Shown here: positions 2,817 through 7,785 of the stretch, piece by piece
Position numbering within the stretch: the stretch's first letter is position 1
How the letters are laid out: the number at the start of each line of letters is the position of its first letter
Source of the DNA: an uncultured Candidatus Saccharibacteria bacterium
Lineage (GTDB): Bacteria > Patescibacteriota > Saccharimonadia > Saccharimonadales > Saccharimonadaceae
DNA: 32,449 bases
Assembly (NCBI GenBank): GCA_964649505.1
Contig: CAZYRC010000001.1
Span: forward strand, 1 to 32,449
Reading direction: 5' to 3'
The notes under the pieces: model-generated
What the model saw: only the letters and a program-made list of their open reading frames with translations
What the model was told of the DNA's origin: nothing
Databases searched by the model: none
Position numbers and translations under genes: made by a program

Positions 2817-5228
2817 ATGAGTACGATTCATGTCGTGAAGCGCGACGGCACAAAAGAGCCGTTTGACGCGAACAAAATCAATCTCGCACTCGTCAAAGCG
2901 AGCGAGGGGCTGCCAGATCAGATTTCAAAAGTCGTGCAGGTCGCGACCGAACTGCAGCTGACGCTTTTTGACGGCATCACGAGTGAACAGCTCGACGAGG
3001 CGGTCATTCATACGGCGCTCCAAAACGTCAAAGACGATCCAGATTTTGATACGATCGCGGCGCGTTTGCTCCTCAAAAATATTTACAAAAATATCCTCGG
3101 CGACTACACGACTGACGAAGAGCTCAAAAAACTGCATGCAAAGCATTTTCCGGTCTATATCAAAGAAGCGGTGCGTGATGGGCTGCTCGACAAACGTATG
3201 GCCGAGACAAAACGATTTGATCTCAAAAAACTCGCCGCTGCACTCGCCCCAGAGCGCGACAACCTCAGCAAATACCTCGGTGTGATCACTAACAAAAACC
3301 GCTACGCACTACGCAAACAAAATGGCCAGCCGATCGAGACGCCACAGTACACCCACATGCGTATTGCGATGGGACTGAGTTTCAATGAAAAAGACCCGAC
3401 GGCGGCAGCACTTGATTTTTATGAGCACATGAGCCGACTCGAATATCTTCCGGGCGGTAGTACCCGTGTGAACGCTGGTGGCTCGTTCCCGCAGCTTAGC
3501 AACTGTTTCGTCATCGACGTCGAGGACGACATGGAATCGATCGCAAAATCGGTTCGCGACACAATGTGGATCGCCAAAGGCACTGGGGGTATCGGTATCA
3601 GCATGAACAAACTCCGCGCGGCGGGCAGCCCGGTGAAAACGACGAATACAGTTTCGACCGGTCCACTGCCATTTATGAAAATGATTGACACGGCGCTCTT
3701 TGCGGTGAGCCGCAAGGGAAAAAAAGCGGGCGCAGCAGCGATTTATATGGAAAACTGGCACCTGAATTTTCCACAGTTCATGGATCTGCGTGAAAACAAT
3801 GGAGACCCATACTACCGCACGCGTTTTGCAAATATCGCCGTCTACATCTCTGACGAATTCATGAAACGTGTCCTCAAAGAGCAGGACTGGTATATGTTCG
3901 ATCCAGCTGAGACGCCTGATTTGTCGGAGCTGTACGGTGAGGCGTTTAGCAAGCGCTACGCAGAATACGTCAAACTCGCCGAGGCGGGCAAATTGCGCAC
4001 ATTCGAAAAAACGCCAGCACGTCAGCAGTGGCGCCAGATTCTGATCCGTTTGCAGGCAAGCAGTCACCCGTGGATCACTTGGAAAGATTCGATCAATCTC
4101 CGCGCGCTCAACAACAACATGAGCACCATCCACTCATCGAACCTTTGCACCGAAATCACACTGCCAAACGACAGCAAAAACATCTCTGTGTGTAATCTCG
4201 TCAGCATCAATCTCAGCGCATTTCTCGATCTCGAGACAAAAACATGGGATTGGGATCGCCTCGAAGTCGCGACGCGCAGCGCCATCCGCCAGCTCGACAA
4301 CCTCTGTGATATCACTGACACGCCGATTCCTGAAGCGCTGCACAGCATCCAGACCACGCGCGCACTCGGCCTCGGCATCATGGGCTTCACCGATATCGTC
4401 GAAAAACTCGGTTTTAGCTACGAAAGCGAAGAAGCCTACGACACGATGGACCAACTCGCCGAATACATCAGTTACTACGCCATCGACGAAAGCGCCGAGC
4501 TTGCCAAACAAAAAGGCAGCTACCCAGATTTCAAAGGAAGCGGCTGGAGCAAAGGGCTATTGCCAATCGACCTCGTCGACATCCAGGCAAAAGACCGCAA
4601 AGTTAAAGTCGATGTCACGCGCAAAAAACGTCTCGACTGGGACGCGCTTCGTAAGAAGACGACCAAAGGCATGCGCAATGCAACCCTGATGGCGGTCGCG
4701 CCAACTGCGAACATCGCGCACGTTGCCGGCACGACGCCGGGGATCGATCCGCAATTTAGCCAGATTTTCTCGCGCAGCACGCTGAATGGCAAATTCCTCG
4801 AAGTCAACGCCAACCTCGTCCGCGACCTCAAGGCGCTCGACCTCTGGGAAGAAGTCAAAGACCAGCTGCTCGTCGAACAAGGCGACCTGACAAACATCGA
4901 CGTCGTGCCGCAACACCTCAAAGACGTGTACAAGACTTGTTTCCAACTCTCACCGCTGGCCTTCATCGAAGTCGCGACACGAGCGCAGAAATGGGTCGAC
5001 CAGGCAATCAGCCGCAACATGTACCTCGAGAGCCGCAGTGTCGACGACATGGAGCACGTCTACATGGAGGCGTGGAAACGCGGTCTCAAAACGACGTACT
5101 ATCTGCATATGAAACCACGCCACCAGGCCGAACAGAGCACGACGCGCGTGAACAAAACCGAAGATATTGCCAAAAATTCCGGCGCCAAAAAAGTTGGGTT
5201 CGGATTTGCGAAAAAACAAAGTGTATAG
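2817..5228 (+). CDS. nrdA: Ribonucleoside-diphosphate reductase alpha subunit (class I, N-terminal ATP cone), lacking the C-terminal Cys pair
   Basis: ATP cone VVKRDG; SNCFV, SSNLCTEI, SVCNL, APTANI and KTTYYL motifs; SD GAGGGG before ATG 2817. Confidence 0.97.
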   Translation: MSTIHVVKRDGTKEPFDANKINLALVKASEGLPDQISKVVQVATELQLTLFDGITSEQLDEAVIHTALQNVKDDPDFDTIAARLLLKNIYKNILGDYTTDEELKKLHAKHFPVYIKEAVRDGLLDKRMAETKRFDLKKLAAALAPERDNLSKYLGVITNKNRYALRKQNGQPIETPQYTHMRIAMGLSFNEKDPTAAALDFYEHMSRLEYLPGGSTRVNAGGSFPQLSNCFVIDVEDDMESIAKSVRDTMWIAKGTGGIGISMNKLRAAGSPVKTTNTVSTGPLPFMKMIDTALFAVSRKGKKAGAAAIYMENWHLNFPQFMDLRENNGDPYYRTRFANIAVYISDEFMKRVLKEQDWYMFDPAETPDLSELYGEAFSKRYAEYVKLAEAGKLRTFEKTPARQQWRQILIRLQASSHPWITWKDSINLRALNNNMSTIHSSNLCTEITLPNDSKNISVCNLVSINLSAFLDLETKTWDWDRLEVATRSAIRQLDNLCDITDTPIPEALHSIQTTRALGLGIMGFTDIVEKLGFSYESEEAYDTMDQLAEYISYYAIDESAELAKQKGSYPDFKGSGWSKGLLPIDLVDIQAKDRKVKVDVTRKKRLDWDALRKKTTKGMRNATLMAVAPTANIAHVAGTTPGIDPQFSQIFSRSTLNGKFLEVNANLVRDLKALDLWEEVKDQLLVEQGDLTNIDVVPQHLKDVYKTCFQLSPLAFIEVATRAQKWVDQAISRNMYLESRSVDDMEHVYMEAWKRGLKTTYYLHMKPRHQAEQSTTRVNKTEDIAKNSGAKKVGFGFAKKQSV

Positions 5229-5240
5229 GAGGGAAATACA

Positions 5241-5414
5241 ATGAACGCATCAACTATTTTAAACGACAACATGACACTCGAAGAAAAACTCAAAGCGATC
5301 TCTGACGCAATGGAAGAAGCGCAGACAACTGCAAACGAACAAGCCGCGCAGCGCGGTGAAGTCGCGGCGCCGATCGACCCAGCCGACCTCACGATGTGCG
5401 AGGGGTGCCAGTAA
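5241..5414 (+). CDS. 57-aa acidic protein ending in CEGCQ; putative stand-alone NrdA C-terminal redox tail
   Basis: MNASTILNDNMTLEEKLKAISDAMEEAQTTANEQAAQRGEVAAPIDPADLTMCEGCQ*; SD AGGAGG; absent from the ORF track (<60 aa); same frame as nrdA. Confidence 0.85.
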   Translation: MNASTILNDNMTLEEKLKAISDAMEEAQTTANEQAAQRGEVAAPIDPADLTMCEGCQ

Positions 5415-5659
5415 TGGAATTTATCCACACATATGGTCGCCCGCTCGAGGATCAGGAAATTCTCGCCGCACTATCGGCGCAGCATCCTGAAAAAAAGTTT
5501 TCGATTGGACCTGGTGGCACGATCGTTGAATCATACCGCGAGCAACCAGTGTATCCAGAGCGAACATCTATTGTTGTAGATCCTACAACGAAAGTCGAAC
5601 TCGGAAATCGTGCTGCTGACGCCGTCGCGCTCGAGCGCATGATGTCGTCTGAGCTGTAG
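5414..5659 (+). CDS. 81-aa hypothetical protein in the nrd operon
   Basis: TAATG stop/start overlap with the CEGCQ ORF; translation MEFIHTYGRPLEDQEIL... Confidence 0.6.
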   Translation: MEFIHTYGRPLEDQEILAALSAQHPEKKFSIGPGGTIVESYREQPVYPERTSIVVDPTTKVELGNRAADAVALERMMSSEL

Positions 5660-5744: not shown

Positions 5745-6803
5745 ATGGCAGGAATTTTAGGTGCAGGTGTCCAGGACGGACTGTTGCTTAAGCCAATCAA
5801 GTATCAATGGGCGATGGATCTCTATGATCAGGCGGTCGCAAACACGTGGTTTCCGAACGAAATCCAGCTCGCGCAGGATCTCGCTGACTGGGAAAAAATG
5901 AGCGACGAAGAGCGCCACGCCGTGACGTTCCTCATGAGCTATTTCAACCCAAATGAGCTGCTCGTGAACAAAGCGCTGGCGTTTGGCGTCTATCCGTACG
6001 TCAACGCAGCCGAGGCGCATCTTTACCTCGCAAAACAGATGTGGGAAGAGGCCAACCACTGTATGGCGTTCGAATACGTCCTCGATACGTTCCCGATCGA
6101 CCGCGACGCCGCGTACGAAGCACACGTGACGGTGCCGGAAATGGCGCGCAAGGAAGAGTTCGAGACCAAATTTATCAAGCGTATGACTGAGGATACGCTC
6201 GACATTACGACGACCGAAGGCAAAAAAGATTTCATCCGCAATATGGTTGCCTATAACATCATTCTCGAGGGAATTTGGTTCTACAGTGGGTTCATGGTTG
6301 CGTTGTCGTTCCGACAACGAAATCTCTTGCGTAACTTCGGTAGCCTCATCGACTGGATCGTGCGCGACGAATCACTTCACCTCAAATTTGGCATCAACTT
6401 GATTCTCACCACGATGCAAGAAAACGAAGACCTCCAGGACCCTGAATTTGCCGAAGAAATCCGCCAAATGATTCTCGATGGCGTCACGATGGAAGAAGAG
6501 TACAACAAGGCGCTCTTGCCAAATGGCATCCTCGGTCTCAACGCCGACTACATCAACCAATATGTCAAATATTTGACTGATCGCCGCCTCGAAGAGCTTG
6601 GATTTGAGCCAGAATACAATGTCTCTAACCCTGCGAAATGGATGGCCGCGGCCAATGACACCTACGAGCTGGTGAACTTCTTTGAAAGCACCAACACCAG
6701 CTACGAAGTCAACGCTGGCAACGCCGAAGGTACACTCAAAGGCACCGGCCCTGAAGACGGCCAAAGCCCAAGCGCTGACCGCGGCGAAGACGAGCCGAAA
6801 TAG
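5745..6803 (+). CDS. nrdB: Ribonucleotide reductase beta subunit, class Ic (R2c, Mn/Fe)-type
   Basis: Ferritin-like ligands FNPNE, EEANH, LEGIWFYSGF, DESLH; Glu as first ligand and Phe at the radical-Tyr site (EEANHCMAF); C-terminal NFFESTNTSY. Confidence 0.93.
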   Translation: MAGILGAGVQDGLLLKPIKYQWAMDLYDQAVANTWFPNEIQLAQDLADWEKMSDEERHAVTFLMSYFNPNELLVNKALAFGVYPYVNAAEAHLYLAKQMWEEANHCMAFEYVLDTFPIDRDAAYEAHVTVPEMARKEEFETKFIKRMTEDTLDITTTEGKKDFIRNMVAYNIILEGIWFYSGFMVALSFRQRNLLRNFGSLIDWIVRDESLHLKFGINLILTTMQENEDLQDPEFAEEIRQMILDGVTMEEEYNKALLPNGILGLNADYINQYVKYLTDRRLEELGFEPEYNVSNPAKWMAAANDTYELVNFFESTNTSYEVNAGNAEGTLKGTGPEDGQSPSADRGEDEPK

Positions 6804-6975: not shown

Positions 6976-7785
6976 GTGTCAATTGATTCTGAAAAGCTAA
7001 AGCGTAATCGTCTAATTGATGCGCGTCGGGTTTTAGGTGGGATTGGTGCCTGTGCTATATTTTTTATGGCTAGCCCAACATCCCCTGCTAGTGCTGCCCC
7101 AGACGGACCTCATCAGTACCCTATTGCATTTACAGGAGAATACGGCGGTGTTTACCCTCGTGAAAATGCCGATCTCACCTCTGAAAAAATAGGTGAAGTT
7201 TTGGCTGAGGGAAATATAGTGAGTATTGCCTGTGAGTATGATGGACAAGAAGTCAGTAATAGCCTGGGCACAAGTTCTCAAGTTTGGGAAAAGCTCGATA
7301 ATGGAACGAGTATCCCAAATGCTTTTGTCAATACGGGGGTTAATGGATATACACCTGGAATAGATAAATGCGGTTCCAGCGACCATGAAACGAATGAGCA
7401 GGAATTATTTATTAAATACAGAGTTGGTGAGTTGTATGGCTATGAGCTCCTAAGTCATTACTATGATGCAACTGGGAAGCCGGCACGCATTGATTGGGAA
7501 TTCTTGAAAAAAAGTGCAGATTTTAGGGCGTTTCTAAACAAAATAGAGAAGGACGGTGTCAATTCGAGGGTATTCGAACCAAATCCGGCCAGTGACCCGG
7601 ACATACTATTTGCTATGGGTGCGTTTGGGGTTGATCGTATATCTCCAGGCTGCTATAAGATTGTAAATACTTATGATTTCAAACCAGACAAGCTAGTTAA
7701 CGCGGCTATGTATAAAAAAGAGTATCAAGACGAGCTTGACGGTAAGGCAAAATCCTTTGAAATGAGGGCATCGAATTGTGAATAA
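6976..7785 (+). CDS. Secreted protein: signal peptide, SH3-like cell-wall-binding domain, C-terminal domain distantly resembling colicin M
   Basis: Signal ending in PASA; IACEYDG...WEKLDNG..IPNAFVNTG...C module; HYYDATG...FAMGAFGV...NTYDF...GKAKSF; TATACT at 6950-6955; AT-richer codon usage. Confidence 0.6.
   Translation: MSIDSEKLKRNRLIDARRVLGGIGACAIFFMASPTSPASAAPDGPHQYPIAFTGEYGGVYPRENADLTSEKIGEVLAEGNIVSIACEYDGQEVSNSLGTSSQVWEKLDNGTSIPNAFVNTGVNGYTPGIDKCGSSDHETNEQELFIKYRVGELYGYELLSHYYDATGKPARIDWEFLKKSADFRAFLNKIEKDGVNSRVFEPNPASDPDILFAMGAFGVDRISPGCYKIVNTYDFKPDKLVNAAMYKKEYQDELDGKAKSFEMRASNCE

Follow-up and report, generated by a model that had tools for sequence, protein, structure and literature searches.

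A detached C-terminal redox tail of class I ribonucleotide reductase is encoded as a separate small gene in Saccharibacteria

We find that in Candidatus Saccharibacteria the C-terminal redox tail of a class I ribonucleotide reductase (RNR) is no longer part of the alpha subunit NrdA but is encoded as a gene of its own, a conserved gene fission that is confirmed by comparison of related loci. In the window, i.e. the whole analysed stretch of 32 449 nt, nrdA (2817..5228, forward strand) is followed by a gene for a 57-aa peptide (5241..5414, forward strand) with the C-terminal motif DPxxxxxCxxCQ. With a probability of roughly 0.7, we regard this peptide as the detached CxxC tail of NrdA, which likely acts in trans, as a third enzyme component, to re-reduce the disulfide in the active site. 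The original prediction, made from the window alone, had proposed gene fission with a tail acting in trans; homology to fused tails and co-occurrence across genomes both speak for this reading. A detached tail is, within the literature searched, new for class I, while the principle of a tail in trans is already known from class II.

The nrdA ORF starts at ATG 2817, and an alternative GTG frame begins upstream at 2766. Its product consists of an ATP cone and the barrel and belongs to the PRK06539 family (1282 bits against the NCBIfam model; cut-off 988), with the Pfam domains PF03477, PF00317 and PF02867 and 5im3 as the closest solved structure. Against the class II model NrdJ_Z it reaches 380.8 bits, which is under the cut-off of 399.95, and nrdB adjoins. 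As anticipated, NrdA retains its catalytic residues: an alignment of 40 rows shows no variation at C230, N442, C444, E446, C459, Y761 and Y762, which by E. coli numbering would correspond to the active-site cysteine trio, the Asn/Glu pair and the YY radical path. The C-terminus reads KTTYYL...AKKVGFGFAKKQSV and is terminated by a TAG at 5226..5228. No cysteine follows the YY pair in the translation of the window, so that NrdA itself lacks a C-terminal Cys pair, and the net charge of the tail is +6, in agreement with the basic, Cys-free end described before. Residues G794-F795 are the same in every one of the 40 rows, of which 6 are split and 34 fused; since this includes the fused relatives, the GFGF motif must be older than the split, and the docking of the peptide on this end, suggested in the original prediction, is speculative. 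No second nrdA or nrdB was matched in the genome (G000), and the tail Cys pair can therefore only come from the peptide.

The peptide ORF shares the frame of nrdA and begins 12 nt downstream of its stop, with the single TAG between them. A Shine-Dalgarno-like AGGAGG (5227..5232, forward strand) overlaps the nrdA stop, and purine-rich stretches ahead of the start are also seen at homologous loci. The peptide has a net charge of -8 and ends with PIDPADLTMCEGCQ, the last residues being CEGCQ; C53 and C56 are its only two cysteines and are invariant among homologues. The AlphaFold2 prediction shows a single helix spanning residues 13-37 (mean pLDDT 70.8) and a loose end. Thus the separate acidic, helical ORF with its own Shine-Dalgarno sequence was correctly recognised from the window. 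A match was found in 36 of 36 other genomes of the same genus that were searched (the copy in one of them, G036, is frameshifted), which argues against a chance ORF. Compared with 67 distinct gapless homologues, differences at the three codon positions amount to 1045/616/2167, pN is lower than pS in all 67 cases and both cysteines are retained, confirming at the level of codon comparison a genuine gene under purifying selection. A named family was not found for the peptide in Pfam or NCBIfam (no hit over the cut-off) or in the ESM Atlas, and the sole match in PHROGs, phrog_14482 (function unknown), covers residues 5-27. There is no thioredoxin-fold Pfam match on the peptide, and its CxxC is C-terminal, not N-terminal, which sets it apart from Trx, Grx and NrdH redoxins. 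In one further genome (G171; L123 1578-1700, reverse strand), nrdB is followed by a second paralogue of 40 aa, whose helix starts in the same way at the N-terminus and whose Cys end differs.

The origin of the peptide can be read from NrdAs that still carry their tail. A search with the tail-bearing region as query, which can show the existence of fused forms and not their frequency, gave 134 matches; the 120 listed are all NrdAs of the same family, 51-65% identical over the barrel, and all show a G-F-G-like motif, a low-complexity linker and a terminal [DN]P...CxxC. Fused relatives include Aeromicrobium, Jiangella, Nocardioides, Tessaracoccus, Nomurabacteria and Parcubacteria. Because the relatives from Aeromicrobium, Nocardioides and Parcubacteria carry the motif fused, the peptide is identified as the detached redox tail. 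Among 250 other Patescibacteria genomes drawn, 2 encode a fused-tail PRK06539 NrdA, and one of these two had supplied the query for the search above. In a profile-profile comparison, the peptide aligns through its last 21 columns to the end of the NrdA alignment (E 3.8e-5) and to no other part of it, which places the cut just behind the GFG motif; the N-terminal helix of the peptide has no detected counterpart in fused tails. When longer forms were sought with the 57-aa profile, none of the 7991 candidates scored was an NrdA fusion, which is weak evidence. In a quick tree of 84 rows, the split NrdAs of the bacterium's own family form one clade (16 rows) and those of family f42 a second (3 rows); both share one unresolved node with fused sequences of actinobacterial type, inside the fused relatives. 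This nesting suggests that the fused state is likely ancestral, and the quick tree fits one fission event as well as two.

The fission is not a peculiarity of one assembly or of one frame. A scan of GTDB confirmed 352 loci, selected by the peptide, of which the best 80 were retained. Among these best 80 of 352, the gene order is nrdA-peptide(-nrdB) at 46 loci and nrdA-nrdB-peptide at 30, while nrdB-peptide with nrdA outside the locus and the peptide alone occur at 2 each; the peptide thus lies within the nrd operon at 78 of the 80, and in this peptide-selected set NrdA ends Cys-free in 76 of 76 readable cases. Partial readthrough or recoding of the stop codon, giving a fused NrdA-tail protein, had been considered as an option beside fission and would fit the window itself, where the ORF follows in frame behind one TAG, as well as 9 of the 46 adjacent loci, the only ones in which the peptide lies in the nrdA frame without a further stop. 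Across these 46 loci, however, the gaps vary from 8 to 175 nt, the three frames are used 18, 18 and 10 times and the nrdA stops are TAA (21), TAG (13) and TGA (12); the frame relation is hence not conserved. Moreover, nrdB intervenes in 30 of the 80 loci, and every peptide gene has its own start and an SD-like stretch. Frames and gene order refute readthrough as a general mechanism, and we consider it very improbable. An assembly error or a recent pseudogenisation could be suspected for an assembly of 76 contigs with 88.7% completeness. Against this, contigs of five runs, drawn from four studies, cross 5226-5228 with no difference listed there (two more runs did not reach this position), so that the stop stands where a sense codon would have restored one continuous NrdA, and in every one of the 76 related loci that could be read the genes are split; both results refute such an artefact, whose remaining probability is negligible.

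To put co-occurrence on a set not chosen by the peptide, we used a single draw of 200 genomes of the class (at least 85% complete). This NrdA (E<1e-170) occurs in 42 of them, 39 from f1, the bacterium's own family, and 3 from f42, and the peptide is present in all 42, as expected if peptide and Cys-tail-less NrdA belong together, although the genomes compared are kin and not independent tests. The NrdA ends read for 6 of the 42 are all Cys-free. In the other 23 of the 62 f1 genomes there is no peptide, and the RNR is either distant or missing. One peptide match, in the genome G216, fell within a frame of 1095 aa and disappeared with the tail profile. Other Saccharimonadia (G099, L124; G039 and G192, L125 and L126) use other kinds of RNR, whose Cys ends are fused; the distribution of RNR types over the class is thus patchy.

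A less strict picture emerges from a second NrdA lineage (~40% identity), for which 51 ends were read: 30 are Cys-free, 20 are fused and one has a degenerate tail plus the peptide. Nineteen of the 30 Cys-free NrdAs are accompanied by a free, unlinked peptide of roughly 30-45 aa; for the remaining 11, searches by profile, protein and pattern gave no peptide, and this is the main result against a strict requirement. For the 20 fused NrdAs, a free peptide was found in 5 cases and not found in 15. Among these 11 are all 6 genomes read from the genus g92 (G090, G094, G106, G144, G175 and G207; 92-98% complete; L382-L384), which means that some tail-less NrdAs may work without one. The peptide hunts in g92 and in G159 were empty, although empty pattern searches are weakly informative, and because peptide ends vary (that of G087 is CAG) misses are possible. 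An internal CxPC of the g92 NrdA was weighed as a possible replacement for the shuttle and dismissed: fused relatives have it as well, and the NrdA of the window lacks it. In family f40 (including L127 1947-2057, reverse strand, and L168-L193), 24 of 28 genomes encode a short free tail peptide at a distance from nrdA. Five f40 genomes contain both a fused tail and the peptide, 16 have lost the fused tail and 4 are tail-less without a peptide found; in G150 the fused tail is degenerate, with CxxY for CxxC, and the peptide is present. The f40 genomes G183 and G189 (86% complete) have the peptide and no NrdA match listed. The free peptide of f40 is of a CPIDP type, different from the NrdA tails that are still fused there.

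Copies of the peptide are also found in viral sequences. In IMG/VR, 34 loci match the long peptide and 28 the tail profile, with one contig in both sets (L138-L165, L317-L350). The fetched flanks of these loci contain no nrdA, and nrdB in one case. Five whole viral records, two of them rated complete, lack an RNR barrel, and complete phage genomes carry peptide copies of 26 and 53 aa and no nrdA. Terminase or portal genes lie beside two viral loci, another copy (G251) is located between an integrase and an endolysin, and two loci (L325 and L338) encode two tail peptides in tandem; some of the viral peptide loci may be host DNA. Among cultured phages, Pan2 (L166 3001-3081) has a 26-aa tail peptide at a place where the record annotates another frame, and CN1A (L167 2983-3054) has an unannotated one of 23 aa. 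A phage gene of 23-57 codons, missed or called in the wrong frame by annotators, could steer the nucleotide supply of the host. As the peptide stands beside intact fused tails and in phages without nrdA, it is not only a missing part. The difference in type between free and fused tails in f40 and the phage copies without nrdA led us to a broader, tentative reading, to which we give somewhat less than even odds: detached tails might be exchangeable, mobile micro-redoxins of multiple origins, which complement NrdAs of other subfamilies so that the fused tail decays, and which, borne alone by phages, tune the dNTP synthesis of the host.

How the detached tail would work can be outlined from known RNR chemistry. 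In class I enzymes, the active-site cysteines become oxidised in turnover and are reduced by the tail pair of the alpha subunit, which in turn is reduced by thioredoxin (available text of PMC11903788). Accordingly modelled, each turnover of the enzyme described here would leave C230 and C459 of NrdA as a disulfide; the flexible end of the peptide would enter the active site and move the disulfide to C53/C56; and thioredoxin or a glutaredoxin/NrdH-like protein, fed by thioredoxin reductase, would re-reduce the peptide. The likely electron route would thus run from NADPH via TrxR and Trx or Grx to C53/C56 of the peptide and on to C230/C459 of NrdA, every step being conjectural. The genome encodes a thioredoxin (WCPPC) and a glutaredoxin-like protein (WCAFC); its thioredoxin-reductase-like protein scores under the TIGR01292 cut-off. 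The acidic N-terminal helix might replace the covalent tether by binding NrdA, perhaps at its basic tail, or by self-association. The peptide may be a stable subunit or a diffusing shuttle: the structure model suggests such a tether in Saccharimonadia, and the short phage and f40 forms have no helix. A complex prediction of NrdA residues 100-803 with the peptide gave a score of 0.03 (mark 0.32), which we count neither for nor against binding.

The beta subunit bears on one of the alternatives. NrdB (5745..6803, forward strand) is of class Ic type, with Phe109 at the position of the radical Tyr (motif EEANHCMAF) and Glu71 as first ligand (motif NELL), both aligning with 1syy, the best NrdB match, which we take to be the class Ic NrdB of Chlamydia trachomatis. 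The alignment thus points to a likeness to the Chlamydia enzyme, for which, however, a detached tail is not described in the literature searched. In related, partly overlapping loci, Phe occupies the radical-Tyr position in 113 of 113 NrdB motif matches. The RNR of this bacterium is therefore probably class Ic by its motifs, and its NrdB suggests a Mn/Fe RNR in Saccharibacteria. Class Ic beta subunits (R2c) are defined by a Mn(IV)/Fe(III) cofactor (PMC8463856, in the text available), and Group 3 of the RNR survey PMC9669993 contains many beta subunits with such a replacement of the radical Tyr (likewise).

Two other roles for a tail-derived peptide have to be weighed. By now it could regulate or inhibit RNR or thioredoxin, or serve as a decoy for them, with the tail-less NrdA being reduced directly by Trx/Grx or small thiols. 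The 11 of 30 tail-less NrdAs without a detected peptide, the 5 genomes with a free peptide alongside a fused tail and the phages that carry it without nrdA would all be compatible with this, as would the direct reduction of RNR active sites by small dithiols in vitro (accessible part of PMC4520616). We nevertheless consider it unlikely, given the 42/42 co-occurrence with the tail-less PRK06539 NrdA, the invariant Cys pair and the position within the nrd operon at 78 of 80 loci; a dispensable regulator would also be more easily lost from a reduced genome. Alternatively, the CxxC peptide might bind metal and help to assemble or maintain the Mn/Fe cofactor of NrdB. Its acidic character together with the CxxC, its frequent position next to nrdB (behind it in 30 of 80 loci) and the class Ic-like NrdB make this conceivable, but in fused NrdAs this motif forms the terminal tail, and it tracks the loss of that tail; moreover, peptides of this family have only two cysteines, so that we judge a metal role to be quite improbable.

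Re-reduction in trans by a detached tail has relatives among known systems. In the fused class I enzymes, e.g. NrdE of B. subtilis with the tail pair C695/C698 (PMC11903788, as far as its text is available), barrel, catalytic residues and the terminal DP...CxxC[QE] are the same; here, by contrast, the tail is an independent chain of 57 aa that has a start of its own and a helix not alignable to fused tails, and its gene is free in position, before or after nrdB. A precedent for the same logic is the class II RNR of P. aeruginosa, where NrdJb, a separate chain, supplies the C-terminal cysteines: as here, the catalytic chain NrdJa lacks them and a second gene provides thiol-disulfide exchange in trans (PMC4520616, available portion). 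NrdJa/NrdJb is, however, a B12-dependent class II enzyme without a beta subunit, whereas the present system is class I with NrdB and a small two-Cys peptide. A class I alpha subunit encoded by two genes is also known from phage NrdA-a/NrdA-b, in which new terminal tails serve as interaction domains; there, the insertion of the mobE endonuclease gave two large fragments (PMC3045599, text available in part), while here the barrel is whole, nothing but the redox tail has been split off, and the cut between nrdA and the peptide holds no element. In the accessible parts of RNR surveys, Cys-free ends and splitting are reported for class II, and CXXC as the consensus of class I (bioRxiv 2022.04.23.489257, PMC9669993). 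A detached class I tail is not reported in the literature searched, which comprised few subscription papers and no supplements. The claim that no characterised RNR is built this way thus holds for class I within that literature, but not in general, in view of the NrdJb precedent (PMC4520616, part available).

The class I redox tail is treated as part of the alpha chain in reviews and structures. A free tail parts catalysis from re-reduction, so that the re-reduction step, of which little has been seen, becomes titratable, mutable and trappable as a two-component reaction. Tail-less NrdAs in genomes should not be labelled broken, and the peptide gives an identity to a family of hypothetical small ORFs (781 matching protein clusters at E<=0.01, the named relatives being Saccharibacteria).

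Between the peptide gene and nrdB lies an ORF of 81 aa (5414..5659, forward strand), which overlaps the peptide stop (TAATG) and matches no family over the cut-off. It is present in only 1 of 80 related loci and is thus not a core component. Upstream of nrdA, at 2618-2668, two AT-rich near-palindromes resemble NrdR boxes by eye; a pattern search did not match them. The genome encodes NrdR. A scan for promoters and terminators remained at chance level. Contigs from RNA libraries cover the operon and its flanks at similar depth and are therefore no demonstration of transcription; the raw-read runs gave 0 and 2 reads. Downstream, inside a 269-aa ORF (6976-7785), 231 nt (7325-7557; a multiple of three) are skipped in the contigs of two runs, and this gap is a strain indel.
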